Origin: Escherichia phage UGJNEcP1
Reading direction: 5' to 3' (one strand)
DNA length: 64,000 bases
Sequence record: OV754623
The first letter of the stretch is position 1, and every line of letters begins with the position of its first letter. A program made the position numbers and the translations under genes. Shown here piece by piece: positions 3,674 to 53,743 of this stretch. The notes beneath the pieces are model-generated. The model did no database searches, was not told the DNA's origin, and saw only the letters and a list, made by a program, of their open reading frames with translations.

Positions 3674-4426
3674 ATGGCTAATATAATTCGTTGTAAATTA
3701 CCGGATGGTGTTCATCGTTTCAAGCCGTTCACCGTAGCGGATTATAGAGACTTTTTACTAGTTAGAAATGATATCGAACATCGTTCGCCACAAGAACAAA
3801 AAGAAATAATTGCCGATCTGATTGATGATTATTTTGGCGAGTACCCTAAAACATGGCAACCATTTATATTCCTGCAAGTTTTTGCAGGCTCTATAGGCAA
3901 AACAAAAGTTCCCGTTATTTTCACTTGCCCTAAATGCTCTAAAGAAAAAACTGCACCATTTGAGATATATCAAAAAGAACTAGTCGAACCTGAACTTGAT
4001 GTTGCTGGTATAAAAATACGTTTTTCTTTCCCTGAAAAGTTTTATGACAACAAGGCATTAATGATAAGTGAAAACATAAAAGAAATATATTATAATGATG
4101 AATGGTACCCGTGGAATGATTTGACTGAAGAGAACCAAATCCAAGTAATAGAAGCAATAGACATTGACTCGCTCGAGAAGGTTATTGCTTCTATGAACCC
4201 TATTAATTTGACCCTTAGATTAGGTTGTTGTGAACGTCATGTTAAAACATATACTGATATCTTAGAGGTTTTTAAATTGTTAGTTAACCCTGATGAGATT
4301 TTTACATTCTATCAGATAAACCATTCACTAGTAAAGAGTCAATACACGTTGGATTCTATTATGCAAATGATTCCTGTTGAACGTGGTATTGCTTTAACAT
4401 TAGTAGAAAAGGACCATAAAAAATGA
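3674..4426 (+). CDS. 51: baseplate hub assembly catalyst gp51
   Basis: 250 aa; AGGAG SD; TATAAATA 18 nt upstream; synteny. Confidence 0.8.
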
Positions 4427-49868: not shown

Positions 49869-49896
49869 TGTTTTCGTGAGAAAAAAATGCACAAAA

Positions 49897-49912
49897 GGGA
49901 GCTTCGGCTCCC
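49897..49912 (-). terminator. intrinsic terminator after gene 52 (GGGAGC-CGAA-GCUCCC plus U-run)
   Basis: Hairpin followed by TTTTGTG on the minus strand, upstream of the duplicated promoter. Confidence 0.55.
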
Positions 49913-49988
49913 TAATCATGTTTGTCTAACCAATACAGCCAAATCACTAGTGCAGCTATTGCACCGAGAAATCCTAAGGCTAGGGCAC

Positions 49989-51314
49989 TCAAAGTGCCTC
50001 CAAGTCTTTAGTGTACTCTGTCACAACATCAGTAGACTTCCAATACTCGTTTTCTTCTTTCTTAGCTTTAGCTTCTTCTGCTAGTTTACGTGCTTCGTCG
50101 GAAGTGATATGGAAGATGTTAAGACCTACCAGTTTATCGACATGTTCTTTATACATTTCGATTTGTGCTAGCTCTTCAGTCAAAGCTTTACGAGTCTTGC
50201 CTTGAATCACAATTTCACCGGCAATAACTTTTTTGATGAAGTGTGCCTTAGCAAAAGCAAGTTTAAATGCTTTTTCAGATTCAAGGATTTTGTTGTCAAT
50301 ACGTTTCTGAACGTAAGTCTTACGGACTTCAACAAAATCTTTGATTAAGTCCACTACGTTATCGTAGACCGCTAATTTACCCTTTTCATTAATCACTGTG
50401 ATGTTTTGTGAACGACGTTCGATGAGACTAAAATCTTTCATGATTTTTTCGTGACGTAGCTCTTCATCATCAGGAAGCGAGTACTCTTTACGGAACTTCA
50501 CCTTAAACCCAAAGCCGTGTTCACCACAATCATCTTCCCATGAGATTAGACCTTTGTCTTCCAACGGGTCAAGAACCTTACTCACATACGTTTCACGGTC
50601 GAATTTATATGGGATTTCAGTTATCTGCATTTGAGTGCGAGATGTGAACTTATATGTTCCGTGAATCTCATAACGCCCATCAACTTCATGTACTTCACCA
50701 CGGAATTCCGGGAATTCAACTTTTGGCTTAGTGACATTTTTACCTTGAAGAGCTTGTAATACAGCCTTTTTAACTGATTTAAAACTATGAGGCAGAATAT
50801 TTGTTGCGTAACCGGTTGCAATACCAGAGACGCCATTCAAAAGAACTGTCGGAATAATAGGAAGATAGAATTTTGGTGGAACGTGTTCTTTATCTTCATG
50901 AGCTGGAGCGTATTCAGTATCTTTATAGACATTATAGAAATTTTTACTTACACGAGCAAAAATATAACGAGATGCTGCAGCTTTTTGGACTGTTCTAGAA
51001 CCAAAGTTGCCCTGGCCGTCTAACAGTGGATAGTTGTTGTTCCATGTGTTAGCCATCAATGCACCTGCATCTTGTGCAGAAGATTCGCCATGATGATAAC
51101 CTAAATCTGCAACACCTCCTGCAATTGACGCAAGTTTATGAAATTTTTCTTTATTACCACGAGCCAAATCTAATGCCCGATGAACAACAAAACGTTGAAC
51201 CGGCTTAAATCCATCAATCATGTTTGGGATTGCACGGTTTTCAACGGTGTACATCGCATATGCTAAGGCTTCGTTATCAATAATACTTTTTAGATTACGA
51301 GAATTCAATTGCAT
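49989..51314 (-). CDS. 52: DNA topoisomerase II medium subunit gp52
   Basis: 441 aa (T4 gp52 442 aa); GyrA-like N-terminus; near-identical to T4 as recalled. Confidence 0.9.
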   Translation of the reverse strand: MQLNSRNLKSIIDNEALAYAMYTVENRAIPNMIDGFKPVQRFVVHRALDLARGNKEKFHKLASIAGGVADLGYHHGESSAQDAGALMANTWNNNYPLLDGQGNFGSRTVQKAAASRYIFARVSKNFYNVYKDTEYAPAHEDKEHVPPKFYLPIIPTVLLNGVSGIATGYATNILPHSFKSVKKAVLQALQGKNVTKPKVEFPEFRGEVHEVDGRYEIHGTYKFTSRTQMQITEIPYKFDRETYVSKVLDPLEDKGLISWEDDCGEHGFGFKVKFRKEYSLPDDEELRHEKIMKDFSLIERRSQNITVINEKGKLAVYDNVVDLIKDFVEVRKTYVQKRIDNKILESEKAFKLAFAKAHFIKKVIAGEIVIQGKTRKALTEELAQIEMYKEHVDKLVGLNIFHITSDEARKLAEEAKAKKEENEYWKSTDVVTEYTKDLEAL

Positions 51315-51318
51315 ATTT

Positions 51319-51459
51319 TCACCATATTAATGAACGAATAACCATTATAACATCTGAAATGAAAAGCACTACTTGGATTAGTCCAAACATCACACCATAA
51401 TACAGAACCGTAAGCAACAACAAGAGCCCGAAGGCTCCTGCTAAGATTTTCTTAATCAT
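51319..51459 (-). CDS. small hydrophobic membrane protein, 46 aa (ac/52.1 position)
   Basis: Hand-translated (MIKKILAGAFGLLLLLTVLYYGVMFGLIQVVLF...); start overlaps the upstream small ORF stop; not in the ORF track. Confidence 0.35.
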   Translation of the reverse strand: MIKKILAGAFGLLLLLTVLYYGVMFGLIQVVLFISDVIMVIRSLIW

Positions 51460-51604
51460 TACTCGCCTTTAACACGTTAAGAAGAGCTAAGACCGCTAAG
51501 GTGCCTTGTGATACGGCTTGTTGAAATACTGTTGTTTCGCCTGTAACTAAAGTGTTAACGAATAAAAACAACCAACACAGCAATGCAATAATCCATGATA
51601 CCAT
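51452..51604 (-). CDS. small hydrophobic membrane protein, 50 aa
   Basis: Hand-translated (MVSWIIALLCWLFLFVNTLV...); GAGGT SD; directly downstream of ndd. Confidence 0.35.
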   Translation of the reverse strand: MVSWIIALLCWLFLFVNTLVTGETTVFQQAVSQGTLAVLALLNVLKASND

Positions 51605-51656
51605 TTTAATTACCTCAAAAATAAATTAAAGGACTATTAAGCTAGGCCCGTATAAA

Positions 51657-52103
51657 TTAGTAACTCTGCAGAATGAATTTGAAATTATCTGCCAGAAGAC
51701 GGTTCATTTCAGTGAGTGTTTGATATTCTGATGTATGATTGCGAGTGAATGCCAGAGCCAATTGTCCTTTACCATAACCAGTAGTCAGGGGTTTCATGTT
51801 CTTAGCTGCAACAAAGATTACATCATATTCAATATTGTTAGTGCCCATAGTACGGGCTAGTTGTGAACGGCCTTGACGAATGTGAGAAAGAATTGCATCC
51901 AACCCTTGTTTAGAACGTTGACGTCCTACAAAGAATCGTGCTGCTACTTGTCGCCAATCAGATGAACCTTTAACAAAGAAGTAAAAACCTTCACGAGAAC
52001 GAAACTCTTTAGAAACTTCAGAACCGTATTCACCATTACGAACTACTGCAACAACTTCACCGCCAACTGCCAGAAGGTCTTTACGAGTTAAATATTTGGA
52101 CAT
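51657..52103 (-). CDS. ndd: nucleoid disruption protein Ndd
   Basis: 148 aa (T4 Ndd 151 aa); position between gene 52 and denB; promoter upstream. Confidence 0.65.
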
Positions 52104-52147
52104 GCTAATTTCCTCAATTGATTAATGTTTTTGTAATCCATGAGAGC

Positions 52148-52177
52148 ATTATACTCTGCTCTCAAGAGTTTGTACAA
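52148..52177 (-). promoter_or_regulatory. early-type promoter variant (TTGTAC-N18-TATAAT) upstream of ndd
   Basis: -10 flanked by GAGAGCA / TGCTCTC. Confidence 0.45.
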
Positions 52178-52179
52178 TT

Positions 52180-52380
52180 TTATTCGGCCATATCAGAACG
52201 TTCAAAAAGCTCTTCAACAGTTAAACATTCAGTGTCATCCTCAATAAAGAATCGAGTCCAACACGTTGGGGCGATACAGTTATGAGTTTGTCCGGCGATA
52301 GAAGCTACACGAATAAGCTGCTGACCGTTATTCAGAACAAATTTTTCACCAATTTCAACATCTTTAAAAAGCTTAGCCAT
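52180..52380 (-). CDS. hypothetical protein (ndd.1 position)
   Basis: ORF track; promoter at 52409..52438. Confidence 0.45.
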   Translation of the reverse strand: MAKLFKDVEIGEKFVLNNGQQLIRVASIAGQTHNCIAPTCWTRFFIEDDTECLTVEELFERSDMAE

Positions 52381-52408
52381 TTTGTGTTCCTCATGTTTCA
52401 GTAGGACT

Positions 52409-52438
52409 ACTATACCATAATCCTACCTTGTTGTAAAC
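52409..52438 (-). promoter_or_regulatory. T4 early-type promoter (GTTTAC-N18-TATAGT)
   Basis: Palindrome GTAGGA...TCCTAC around the -10. Confidence 0.5.
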
Positions 52439-52630
52439 AATTAAATTACATTAAAATATGTTAAAGCCAACCATGTTCCTGTGAACGAACACGCAATGTA
52501 AAAACCCGTATCGCAAATTGTTCTTAGTACAATAAGAAGTGCATTTTTCATAAGTACCTCAATGCAATTGAAAATATTATACAAATCATAGGGATACTAA
52601 GCAACCATATTCCGATCCACATTTTAGAGC

Positions 52631-52894
52631 TCATAGCTCAACTTCCGCCAGTTCCATATATCCTTTGTTGATAGTCTCTTTAAGGTCTTTAGAAAGAATG
52701 ACATTAAAATGGTCGTTCATATGTCCGTTAACTAAACGAGTTATTTCGGCTTCAGATGACATATAAGGCACGTCTGAGTCCCAATGAGATAGTCCCAAAT
52801 GGGTATAAATCATCCCTTCGTCATCTGCAGTGTTGTACATTGAAACAAATTCGCCTGTTACTTTATGTTTTGCGTAGAAAAATTTAAATTTCAT
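52631..52894 (-). CDS. hypothetical protein
   Basis: ORF track; promoter at 52921..52950. Confidence 0.45.
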   Translation of the reverse strand: MKFKFFYAKHKVTGEFVSMYNTADDEGMIYTHLGLSHWDSDVPYMSSEAEITRLVNGHMNDHFNVILSKDLKETINKGYMELAEVEL

Positions 52895-52920
52895 AATGTT
52901 ATCCTCTTTTAGATAGGACT

Positions 52921-52950
52921 ACTATAACATAGTCCTACTTAGTTGTAAAC
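52921..52950 (-). promoter_or_regulatory. T4 early-type promoter (GTTTAC-N18-TATAGT)
   Basis: Palindrome TAGGACTA...TAGTCCTA around the -10. Confidence 0.5.
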
Positions 52951-52962
52951 ACTTTTATGAAA

Positions 52963-53520
52963 TTAAAGATGAAGATACCACCCGTTGTAGTTGCTCTTGC
53001 GGACGATTTTCTTTAGGTCTTCATGGTCTCCCACAAACTTTATAGAATAAGAGAAGACGTCAGGTGAGGTTTCTTTGACATCTAATATAATAATGCAATC
53101 TGCGACTCGATGATTCAAGAAGGGCCCTATATTGATTCCATTACCACCCGGATAATCACCGCTGTATCCTGTGGTAACCGAAATCCATTTAGAATCTATC
53201 TGATGGGTCTTTACTTCTACGCGTAGACCACAGTACTTAGGATGAGCTAAAACGTCCCACGCATACGTGTACGGGTCTTCTACGTCTTCAATACCTTTAT
53301 TAACATATCCGTCTAGCCAATTTGCTACTACGTACTCTGCAAAGACCGCAACCTTACAACGTCGAACTACATCTTCTTTGTTTTGGTCAGGATTTTGGCT
53401 CAGGGAATACCGAGCAGTGTCAGCAATCTTCACCTTCATTTCACTAGTCAAAAACTCATTCGACAGGATAAATGTCGGAAGATTCTTCAGTCTCAACAGT
53501 CCCAAGTTCGTCTTTACCAT
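52963..53520 (-). CDS. endonuclease IV-like protein (denB position)
   Basis: ORF 52963..53583 trimmed to Met 22 (GAGGT SD), giving 185 aa as T4 DenB; assignment by size and synteny only. Confidence 0.45.
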   Translation of the reverse strand: MVKTNLGLLRLKNLPTFILSNEFLTSEMKVKIADTARYSLSQNPDQNKEDVVRRCKVAVFAEYVVANWLDGYVNKGIEDVEDPYTYAWDVLAHPKYCGLRVEVKTHQIDSKWISVTTGYSGDYPGGNGINIGPFLNHRVADCIIILDVKETSPDVFSYSIKFVGDHEDLKKIVRKSNYNGWYLHL

Positions 53521-53743
53521 AGATACCTCTGATGTGTAGTTCGCCAAAATAAATGCGGTCACCTTCTTCAAGATATTCAGCATCTACAGATGGAATTTCA
53601 ATAACAACTTCGTCGCATTCTAACCAGCCGTAGTGTGCATCACCAGGATGTTTTACCAATTTAGCACAATAAACTGATTTACACTTATGATGACCACGAA
53701 GATTAGCAATTTTGGATTCTGATACGTCAAATGGATGAATCAT
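53456..53743 (-). CDS. hypothetical protein (denB.1 position)
   Basis: ORF track; SD after the rIIB terminator hairpin. Confidence 0.4.
   Translation of the reverse strand: MIHPFDVSESKIANLRGHHKCKSVYCAKLVKHPGDAHYGWLECDEVVIEIPSVDAEYLEEGDRIYFGELHIRGIYGKDELGTVETEESSDIYPVE

Follow-up and report, generated by a model that had tools for sequence, protein, structure and literature searches.

The very short open reading frames around ndd in Escherichia phage UGJNEcP1 are, on the evidence of sequence comparison, real genes: orthologues of T4 52.1, ac, and ndd.6, together with a 36-codon gene found only in Mosigvirus. The cluster very probably corresponds, in Mosigvirus, to the set of small-peptide genes, non-essential and transcribed early, that lies between denB and gene 52 in T4. 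As a set these genes are already known, since all four are annotated in relatives, and the finding is an ordinary one. One of them, 52.1, appears in addition to double as a terminator-like hairpin and a promoter, given that it contains both an apparently selected hairpin and an invariant middle-promoter motif.

The window is a stretch of 64,000 nucleotides (record OV754623). Features discussed below are as follows.

49989-51314, minus strand: gene 52, flanking the 52.1/ac pair
51319..51459, minus strand: 52.1 orthologue, a DUF7396-family hydrophobic peptide of 46 aa (Pfam and T4 identity)
51344..51368, minus strand: MotA-type motif TGCTT-N14-TATAAT in codons 31-39 of 52.1, the predicted gene 52 promoter
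51418..51443, minus strand: C(UUCG)G hairpin in 52.1, with an 11-pair stem and the core GAGCC-UUCG-GGCUC at 51424-51437
51452..51604, minus strand: ac orthologue, a predicted two-helix membrane peptide of 50 aa (phrog_2501 and synteny)
51612..51616, minus strand: GAGGT Shine-Dalgarno sequence for ac, 7 nt upstream of its ATG
51657-52103, minus strand: ndd, the other flank of the 52.1/ac pair
52137..52180, minus strand: PeSL-like promoter and stem-loop upstream of ndd, TGTACA-N17-TATAAT with stem GAGAGCA/TGCTCTC
52400..52440, minus strand: PeSL-type early promoter and stem-loop, TTTACA-N17-TATAGT with stem GUAGGAUUAUG/UAUAGUAGUCCUAC
52441..52551, minus strand: Mosigvirus-specific 36-aa gene in the slot of T4 ndd.5, with a GAGGT Shine-Dalgarno sequence at 52560-52556
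52548..52634, minus strand: ndd.6 orthologue of 28 aa with one hydrophobic segment (phrog_8851 and T4 identity)
52912..52950, minus strand: PeSL-type early promoter and stem-loop, TTTACA-N17-TATAGT with stem TAGGACTA/TAGTCCTA

Four conserved small genes

UGJNEcP1 is a Mosigvirus (an RB69-like T-even phage), and all genes lie on the minus strand. The region is 100% identical to that of Escherichia phage UGJNEcP2 and 97-98% identical to those of other Mosigvirus phages, and it matches the T4 order 52 / 52.1 / ac / ndd / ndd.1 / ... / ndd.6 / denB. An earlier note on this DNA had described overlapping frames of 46 and 50 codons between gene 52 and ndd (51319-51459 and 51452-51604, minus strand), along with two further small frames at 52440..52630, which have 36 and 28 codons (52441-52551 and 52548-52634). 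All features of these frames lie where the note had put them, exactly or within a few bases. It had also made its reading depend on conservation of the frames in related phages. They are clearly conserved: across hundreds of phages the frames, their lengths, and their start/stop overlaps persist, and substitutions are mostly synonymous. Phage records with homologous frames number 727 for 52.1, 238 for ac, 152 for the 36-aa gene, and 730 (by tblastn) for ndd.6. The four genes are arranged as two pairs, ac/52.1 and ndd.6/36-aa gene, in each of which the stop codon of one gene overlaps the start codon of the next.

The 46-aa frame matches Pfam PF24129 (DUF7396) over residues 1-46 of 46, with 79.9 bits against a cut-off of 27, and phrog_3595 end to end (9.7e-23). 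It shares 72% identity with T4 gp52.1 over all 46 residues (tblastn of T4 52.1 against the window, 4e-18), and this comparison with T4 genes ruled out the possibility that it is ac or stp. All 27 unique 52.1 coding sequences, from four genera, have 46 codons.

The 50-aa frame matches phrog_2501 (4.3e-21), as does T4 Ac (2.2e-25). Direct identity to T4 Ac is lower, at 34% (tblastn of T4 Ac against the window, 1e-5); the two share a VFxQ..xQG motif, and in the alignment G34 of the window protein is equivalent to T4 G38. The homologous stretch of RB69 and a JK42 coding sequence are labelled "Ac acridine resistance protein". The GAGGT Shine-Dalgarno sequence that had been ascribed to one of the overlapping frames belongs to this one (51616-51612), and is identical in all Mosigvirus loci examined. 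The gene overlaps 52.1 by 8 nt (ATGATTAA), as in T4, and is separated from ndd by 52 nt. Pfam PF26944, a label listed for one Ac relative, was not recovered in the Pfam search.

The 28-aa frame matches phrog_8851, the family of T4 Ndd.6, over residues 1-28 of 28 (1.9e-10). It is 50% identical to T4 Ndd.6 across all 28 residues (tblastn against the window, 7e-8), and lies between denB and ndd as in T4. Its start (ATGA) overlaps the stop of an upstream 87-aa frame, and its own stop is overlapped by the 36-aa gene in the same manner (4 nt, ATGA). The 36-aa frame matches phrog_18561 end to end (1.4e-29). The 152 records in which it occurs, each named as a phage of E. coli or Shigella, have at least 90% identity; among close relatives every substitution is third-position synonymous, and in the most distant relative four of seven are synonymous. 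The peptide is not a diverged Ndd.5: BLAST gave no match, and the two belong to separate PHROG families even at E values up to 10. No homologues of ndd.2 to ndd.5 were found by tblastn anywhere in the window. The GenBank record of UGJNEcP2, the closest relative, leaves out both the 36-aa and the 28-aa genes.

The products of the two overlapping frames had been described as single-pass membrane peptides, and those of the other two as possible membrane peptides. Judged by hydropathy and by AlphaFold2 models of monomers with no membrane, "single-pass" suits at best 52.1 and Ndd.6. The 52.1 model is a single helix (residues 2-45, pLDDT 97); the synonymous substitution pattern, hydropathy, and this modelled helix point indirectly to a predicted membrane peptide. 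Ndd.6 has one hydrophobic stretch, residues 7-25, so that a single inner-membrane helix seems more plausible than the database label "outer membrane protein", an old prediction. Ac, by contrast, is modelled with two helices (2-21 and 25-49), and the 36-aa peptide is only marginally hydrophobic, with R10 and D14 present. Searches of solved structures with Ac and 52.1 gave nothing meaningful, and neither has a sequence match to any PDB chain.

The note had also named ac and stp as small membrane proteins of T4 in this place. A counterpart is present for ac, as the 50-aa frame, and not for stp. A tblastn search with Stp against the whole window gave nothing better than E = 0.14, and no 26-aa Stp-like frame lies between ndd and ac, where the gap is 52 nt. 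Nor is Stp a membrane peptide, as its sequence is polar and basic; the T4 record describes a 26-aa protein that activates PrrC, a host nuclease, and nothing further.

A hairpin and a predicted promoter within 52.1

The UUCG hairpin previously placed inside the first coding sequence is there: the plus strand reads GAGCC-CGAA-GGCTC at 51424-51437, and the mRNA sense is GAGCC-UUCG-GGCUC. The structure spans codons 6-14, in the 5' third of 52.1. Its fold of -16.5 kcal/mol compares with -4.75 +/- 2.5 in synonymous recodings. As a terminator it has a strong stem, but the tail (UUGUUGUUGCUU) is interrupted and partly in the stem; because of this interrupted U-tract, a simple terminator scan misses it. 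An Rfam scan of 51000-53200 yielded a single chance snoRNA match (E = 0.9). A GGAG in the window stem was considered as a RegB site and rejected, as GGAG is absent from the T4-type and KPV15 hairpins.

The hairpin has the look of an RNA signal under selection, and a terminator-like element or a stabiliser of 3' ends is its likeliest role. Acting on the early transcripts of ndd and ac, it would either terminate them leakily or stabilise their 3' ends; alternatively, it could be a roadblock that favours re-initiation at the overlapping ac stop and 52.1 start.

The 3' half of 52.1, just downstream of the hairpin, would contain a MotA-dependent middle promoter for gene 52. The pattern looked for was a TGCTT Mot box followed, about 12 bp further downstream, by a TAnnnT -10 element, and the motif at 51344-51368 matches it in sequence. 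It is predicted to drive gene 52 via MotA. The TGCTT and TA(T/A)(T/A)AT elements are invariant in position in 11 of 11 unique variants from four genera, and the synonymous sites between them vary; Klebsiella phage KPV15 has TGCTT and TATAGT at unchanged spacing. Another candidate Mot box, TGCTTTA in codons 14-16 next to the T4 hairpins, was rejected, since it lies too close to a -10 element.

Possibly, if not yet probably, 52.1 is put to three uses: the bases of its 5' third would both specify a transmembrane segment and form the hairpin, and those of its 3' half would both specify the invariant peptide stretch QVVLFISDVIM and hold the MotA promoter of the topoisomerase gene 52. If true, the overlap of hairpin and promoter with coding sequence would explain the near-invariance of half of 52.1, and the gene would be an instance of compact, multi-layer coding.

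Could the 46-codon frame instead be untranslated, and the ac-52 interval purely regulatory, with a terminator hairpin and the gene 52 middle promoter? Some relatives are annotated in just this way: 52.1 is missing and the region is labelled terminator, promoter, or both. Two GenBank records (SA35RD and G50) do not annotate 52.1 and mark the hairpin as a rho-independent terminator, flagged in SA35RD by WebGeSTer and TransTermHP, and SA35RD additionally marks a T4-like middle promoter at the corresponding place. Moreover, the TGCTT-N14-TATAAT motif falls on the best conserved stretch of the peptide, QVVLFISDVIM; 52.1 lacks a strong Shine-Dalgarno sequence; and its product went undetected in the T4 proteome, as did Ac and Ndd.2 to Ndd.6 (Class_P = NA; PMC9697503, Table S2). 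Such non-detection is unsurprising for tiny, hydrophobic proteins, although it still counts as no evidence; a literature search turned up no relevant work in which small T4 proteins were studied by ribosome profiling. Against this stands the coding pattern itself. Start, stop, and 46-codon length are invariant across five genera, even in an unannotated copy in KPV15 with about 57% amino-acid identity. Third positions account for 35 of 68 variable sites; in codons 20-46, the conserved half, 10 of the differences from T4 are synonymous and 6 non-synonymous; and the S-L-I-W at the C terminus, outside the promoter motif, is retained via synonymous changes. The other two frames are closed. Finally, 52.1 lies directly upstream of gene 52, and in every case its start either overlaps the stop of the peptide gene before it or directly adjoins that stop, a classic arrangement for translational coupling. 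A purely regulatory interval is accordingly highly improbable, and translation of 52.1 is the reading adopted here.

The opposite simplification would deny the hairpin any function, making it a by-product of Gly/Ala/Leu-rich transmembrane coding in a CUUCGG-tolerant genome. The KPV15 peptide VAAIAAA is indeed hairpin-prone in itself (null mean -9.6 kcal/mol; observed p ~0.01-0.05), the U-tract is poor, and the loop in phage 55 is UUAG, not UUCG. Covariation is of little help: among 17 T4-type sequences 204 of 204 pair cells are paired, including one CG-to-UA double change, but variation is scant and the shuffled mean is already 98.6% paired. Yet none of 2000 synonymous recodings is as stable as the window hairpin, nor does any of 2000 reach the stability of T4 hairpin 1, and there is no excess structure in the control regions (the rest of 52.1, ac, ndd.6, and the 36-aa frame). 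T4-type phages and KPV15 carry different hairpins in the same place, so that three lineages have three unrelated stem sequences, each starting 17-22 nt past the 52.1 ATG, although the peptide differs there. One-sided changes in the T4-type hairpin all keep pairing, and the non-pairing C-A combination never occurs. A by-product is thus rather unlikely, and a selected RNA signal remains the preferred interpretation.

Early promoters and modules

The small-ORF modules lie where T-even genera differ from one another in gene content. The published PST/T4-type PeSL consensus consists of a TTTACW-N17-TAYWAT promoter and a stem-loop of the form AGNA-loop-TCNT, in a variable region (PMC4122927). Promoter scanning and folding found elements of this kind at three places. 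That at 52912..52950 lies upstream of the 87aa-ndd.6-36aa module (-13.5 kcal/mol, z = -3.0). That at 52400..52440 (-14.1 kcal/mol, z = -3.1) is predicted from its sequence to close this module and to drive ndd.1. The third, at 52137..52180 (-13.9 kcal/mol, z = -3.3), fits less well in its -35 sequence, TGTACA. It is likely the early promoter for ndd-ac-52.1; the promoter scan detected no PeSL-like site between ndd and ac. PMC9697503 (Table S2) assigns the T4 transcripts of 52.1, ac, and ndd.2 to ndd.6 to the early class.

What the peptides might do

Within the four-gene group, only Ac has a described function or phenotype: acridine sensitivity. In T4, deletion of ac or the G38R change gives acriflavine resistance, and plasmid-expressed Ac makes E. 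coli acriflavine-sensitive; blockage of AcrAB-TolC by Ac is a mechanism only proposed (preprint 10.1101/2025.06.30.662393). T4 Ac, named as an acridine "resistance" peptide, in effect confers sensitivity.

By homology to T4 Ac, Mosigvirus Ac may have the same role in acridine sensitivity. Soon after infection, the peptides would enter the inner membrane of the host and change the properties of its envelope. Ac would obstruct the AcrAB-TolC efflux pump, rendering the infected cell acridine-sensitive (an effect documented in T4), and Ndd.6 and the 36-aa peptide would form a second membrane-peptide pair. The constant coupling of 52.1 to the gene in the ac slot suggests that the two products are membrane partners. 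More speculatively, 52.1 and the ac-slot peptide may form a two-peptide membrane complex acting on the host efflux pump. Other peptide types occupy the ac slot of Dhakavirus and Gaprivervirus, so partnership of 52.1 with Ac itself is pure inference.

A role in superinfection exclusion, as had been suggested, or more broadly in anti-defence, would suit the surroundings: the neighbourhood includes the host-takeover genes ndd and denB (and in T4 also stp), the genes are expressed early and are dispensable (T4 with the sa-delta-9 deletion, which removes this gene block, is viable), and the 36-aa gene is lineage-specific and PeSL-flanked, as is typical for accessory genes. Nevertheless, none of the four peptides matches Imm, Sp, or Sie-type families in PHROGs, Pfam, or NCBIfam (the last of which gave no match of any kind with the small peptides). 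Only two phenotypes, moreover, are recorded for the block: acridine sensitivity, due to Ac, and, when the entire block is deleted from T4, failure of the phage to stimulate phosphatidylglycerol synthesis. No result favours exclusion, and effectors of this type are very unlikely. The small peptides of this region are among the least understood parts of T-even early biology.

Comparison with known systems

The 52.1 protein and T4 gp52.1 have in common their 46 residues, their position upstream of gene 52, and the 8-nt overlap with ac; the invariant residues YYG...QVVLFISD...SL.W are also present in the window. They differ at residues 7-18 (AGAFGLLLLLTV against GYSLALAALLVA). Here T4 has two hairpins of 6-7 pairs, different in sequence from the one 11-pair UUCG hairpin of the window.

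T4 Ac occupies the same slot, is likewise coupled to 52.1, and is of the same two-helix hydrophobic type, with 51 residues against 50. It shares the C-terminal SND: relative to other Mosigvirus loci compared, ac of this phage has a 1-nt deletion that gives the T4-like ending ...KASND rather than ...KGE. The E. coli protein AcrZ, a 49-aa single-helix partner of AcrB, is a functional analogy at most, as another membrane peptide of about 50 aa in a setting where action on AcrAB-TolC is proposed; homology is not claimed.

T4 Ndd.6 has the same 28 residues in length, a WL(L/I)SIP core, and the ATGA overlap with the next small frame; its gene directly follows denB, whereas that of the window follows the 87-aa frame (phrog_2390). 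T4 Ndd.5 (phrog_5011) shares with the 36-aa frame its slot and its 4-nt overlap with ndd.6, and is a positional analogue, not a member of the same family.

C(UUCG)G hairpins of T4 mRNAs were reportedly described by Tuerk et al. in 1988. The window hairpin has the same extra-stable tetraloop and C-G closing pair as these (see also PMC4371310). About 14 G+C-rich C(UUCG)G hairpins occur in the window, mostly at gene ends; unlike most, that of 52.1 lies inside an open reading frame, as does one at the 3' end of T4 stp.

T4-type PeSL cassettes (Arbiol et al. 2010, PMC2839356; Comeau et al. 2014, PMC4122927), with TTTACA-N17-TATAGT and AGGA...TCCT, likewise flank the small-ORF modules of the window. 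The 52.1 hairpin belongs to none of these: it sits about 50 nt upstream of the Mot-box promoter, within coding sequence.

The small genes around ndd

The small ORFs around ndd in UGJNEcP1 are already known, as T4 52.1, ac, and ndd.6; each of the four ORFs is annotated in one or more related phages. The remaining interest lies in a hairpin, apparently selected, and a predicted promoter, both embedded in 52.1. Every gene in the region lies on the minus strand; a mechanical ORF list, combined with the annotation of relatives and T4, gives this order:

Genes from gene 52 to denB
49989-51314, minus: gene 52, topoisomerase II medium subunit
51319-51459, minus: 46-aa ORF (52.1)
51452-51604, minus: 50-aa ORF (ac)
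51657-52103, minus: ndd
52180-52380, minus: ndd.1 homologue, 66 aa
52441-52551, minus: 36-aa ORF
52548-52634, minus: 28-aa ORF (ndd.6)
52631-52894, minus: 87-aa ORF
from 52963, minus: denB

Over 51200-52950 the sequence has 100% identity with that of Escherichia phage UGJNEcP2, and about 150 further phages of Mosigvirus (RB69-like T-even phages) match it at 97-98%. The mechanical denB ORF (52963-53583, minus) encodes 206 aa, with a PHROG match spanning residues 22-205; the product annotated in relatives is 158 aa long (477 nt). The 87-aa ORF has an internal stop (W to stop) in metagenome contig OBCQ01000004.1 (L020), an otherwise intact Mosigvirus contig.

An earlier note described these ORFs from sequence alone. 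Its observation is confirmed, and its interpretation was partly right. The 46-aa and 50-aa ORFs do overlap, by 8 nt, and GAGGT lies 7 nt upstream of the ATG of the latter; the 36-aa and 28-aa ORFs are joined by an ATGA overlap, and a separate GAGGT precedes the 36-aa ORF.

Judged by similarity and position, the 46-aa ORF is T4 gene 52.1 (72% identity across all 46 residues; Pfam DUF7396 at 79.9 bits, threshold 27; phrog_3595). Likewise, the 50-aa ORF is T4 ac: both products match phrog_2501 (34% identity), the ORF sits in the T4 ac slot with the same 8-nt overlap with 52.1, and record rows list the homologous RB69 stretch and a JK42 CDS as Ac. The 28-aa ORF is T4 ndd.6 (50% identity, both phrog_8851). 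Of the two T4 genes that the note named for this region, ac and stp, the phage has ac; the whole window lacks any counterpart of stp or of ndd.2 to ndd.5. The 36-aa ORF (phrog_18561) occurs in 152 records at ≥90% identity, solely under E. coli or Shigella phage names, and all copies that could be placed lie within Mosigvirus loci. It was rejected as Ndd.5: it shares the slot and the ATGA overlap, without similarity to the T4 protein.

The note had named a lack of frame conservation in related phages as a refuting observation, and the frames are kept in relatives. Every one of the 27 distinct 52.1 coding sequences collected from Tequatrovirus, Mosigvirus, Dhakavirus, and Gaprivervirus is 46 codons long; the gene's variable sites are enriched at third codon positions (35/68), and comparison with T4 over codons 20-46 shows 10 synonymous and 6 non-synonymous differences. 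Just 12 clusters of 52.1, all DUF7396 and all 46-47 aa, are present among the 5.8 billion proteins of a large database. Klebsiella phage KPV15 has an unannotated copy, likewise of 46 codons, whose predicted product extends DUF7396 to Jiaodavirus. This homologue, MIKKLLIVAAIAAAFLLVMYYGMIYGMIYIVLFISDVIVQIGSLIW (L041, 689-829, plus), adjoins gene 52 on the upstream side, and a hydrophobic ORF upstream of it overlaps it by 4 nt. Substitutions in the 36-aa ORF are all third-position and synonymous in four closely related Mosigvirus loci; the most distant locus has 7, of which 4 are synonymous.

At the downstream end of gene 52 lies a 26-codon hydrophobic ORF, LSALALGFLGAIAALVIWLYWLDKHD (49912-49992, minus), whose TTG start and the stop codon of gene 52 overlap as TTGA. 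By position this ORF corresponds to T4 motA.1 and to the 32-34-aa ORFs of Dhakavirus and Gaprivervirus. Across six Mosigvirus loci, about 7 of its changes are synonymous and 3 non-synonymous. The records of UGJNEcP2 and phage 55 leave it unannotated, and no PHROG matches it significantly.

Ac and membrane character

Ac is the sole peptide of the four with a described role. Acriflavine inhibition of T4 is due to ac, and its deletion or point mutation confers acriflavine resistance; E. coli expressing Ac from a plasmid is more sensitive to acriflavine and ampicillin (preprint 10.1101/2025.06.30.662393). Ac is proposed to obstruct AcrAB-TolC (same preprint; repeated in PMC13250531). Time-resolved omics of T4 placed 52.1, ac, stp, and ndd.2 to ndd.6 transcripts in the early class and detected none of the corresponding proteins (PMC9697503, Table S2). 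For Ac, genetics stands in for direct translation evidence, since G38R and deletions alter the T4 phenotype (preprint 10.1101/2025.06.30.662393). The UGJNEcP1 protein keeps the VFxQ..xQG motif, including the critical glycine. Relative to six other Mosigvirus loci, a 1-nt deletion in an A-run (51455-51470, minus) changes its C-terminus from ...KGE to ...KASND, like T4 ...SND and with the 8-nt overlap with 52.1.

The note took the 46-aa and 50-aa products for single-pass membrane peptides and the other two for possible membrane peptides. By hydropathy sums (Kyte-Doolittle and Hessa-type), hydrophobic segments are clear in 52.1 (residues 5-42), Ac (2-20), and Ndd.6 (7-25); the 36-aa peptide, with R10 and D14, is marginal. 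AlphaFold2 models, as monomers with no membrane, show 52.1 as one unbroken helix (2-45, pLDDT 97) and Ac as two (2-21 and 25-49, pLDDT 78), agreeing with a two-helix ESMfold model of T4 Ac (preprint 10.1101/2025.06.30.662393). Single-pass topology is therefore plausible for 52.1 and Ndd.6 and doubtful for Ac. The suggested role in superinfection exclusion found no link in searches of the four peptides in PHROGs, Pfam, and NCBIfam. The viable T4 deletion sa-delta-9, which takes out 52.1 through denB, abolishes phage-induced stimulation of phosphatidylglycerol synthesis, an effect of the whole-block deletion (PMC6071114).

Elsewhere among the T-even genera, two other types of two-helix hydrophobic peptide occupy the slot that precedes 52.1. 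Because these too are coupled to 52.1, we infer that 52.1 may work together with whichever peptide occupies the slot. In Dhakavirus, Gaprivervirus, and some other T-even phages (loci L007, L009, L015-L017, L019, L022, L031, L034, and L035), the occupants are two families of 53-55-aa peptides with the motif GVW.P..., and the Ac type is absent.

A hairpin inside 52.1

Of the whole finding, the hairpin is the most unusual element. It is present as described, with GAGCC-CGAA-GGCTC on the plus strand at 51424-51437; in mRNA sense it is GAGCC-UUCG-GGCUC, with 11 pairs when extended. It folds at -16.5 kcal/mol. When its 11 codons were recoded synonymously 2000 times according to the codon usage of the phage, no version reached that value (mean -4.75 +/- 2.5 kcal/mol). 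T4-type 52.1 encodes a different peptide in this stretch and forms two different hairpins: GGGCUA-UUCAU-UAGCCC, at -10.1 kcal/mol versus -1.8 +/- 1.7 (0/2000 recodings reach -10.1), and a second at -8.6 kcal/mol, matched by 2% of recodings. In 17 distinct T4-type sequences, 204 of 204 pair cells are paired; one double change (CG to UA) is present, and the several one-sided changes all keep pairing. This conservation lends modest support to a selected hairpin, because pairing in a shuffled control already amounts to 98.6%. In KPV15 this position holds a third stem, unrelated to the others, GUGGCAGC-UAUU-GCUGCCGC (stability p ~0.01-0.05); its Ala-rich peptide is hairpin-prone by itself. Excess structure is absent from the controls: the 3' half of 52.1, ac, ndd.6, and the 36-aa ORF.

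In two GenBank records the hairpin is labelled as a predicted rho-independent terminator, and the 52.1 CDS is missing. A simple terminator scan did not flag it, because its U-run is interrupted. The window has about 14 C(UUCG)G hairpins of this G+C-rich kind, most of them at gene ends. The gene 52 terminator hairpin (49896-49913) has the loop CGAA (mRNA sense) in this phage and phage 55, and UUCG on an identical stem in four other Mosigvirus loci, which looks like a palindrome flip.

Predicted promoters and stem-loop cassettes

Codons 31-39 of 52.1 contain TGCTT-N14-TA(T/A)(T/A)AT (51368-51344). All 11 distinct variants, drawn from four genera, have it at the same position, and synonymous sites between its two elements vary; KPV15 has TGCTT and TATAGT at unchanged spacing, and the phage SA35RD record annotates a T4-like middle promoter here. 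As the most economical reading, we infer that early transcripts from a promoter at 52176-52148 would span ndd and ac, that the 52.1 hairpin would end or stabilise part of them, and that extra MotA-dependent transcription of gene 52 would start inside 52.1. In the ndd-ac gap (51605-51660, minus), other Mosigvirus phages carry a 7-pair hairpin with a U-run (-11.1 kcal/mol). UGJNEcP1 has all but lost this hairpin (-4.2 kcal/mol, z = +1.4), and its middle appears to have been inverted or changed.

Three cassettes bracket the small-ORF modules:

Promoter/stem-loop cassettes of PeSL (promoter-early stem-loop) type
52950-52912, minus: cassette 1
52440-52400, minus: cassette 2
52180-52137, minus: cassette 3

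In each, a stem-loop spans the -10 hexamer. By their sequence the cassettes fit PeSL elements, which have been described as driving module shuffling in T4-type phages (PMC4122927; PMC2839356). Such shuffling fits the patchy gene content here, with the 87-aa and 36-aa ORFs and without stp and ndd.2 to ndd.5. At its 3' end, T4 stp carries a C(UUCG)G hairpin within coding sequence, GGCGUC-UUCG-GACGCC (L004, the T4 locus, 4006-4030, minus); it encodes G-V-F-G-R, in parallel with the G-A-F-G-L of UGJNEcP1 52.1.
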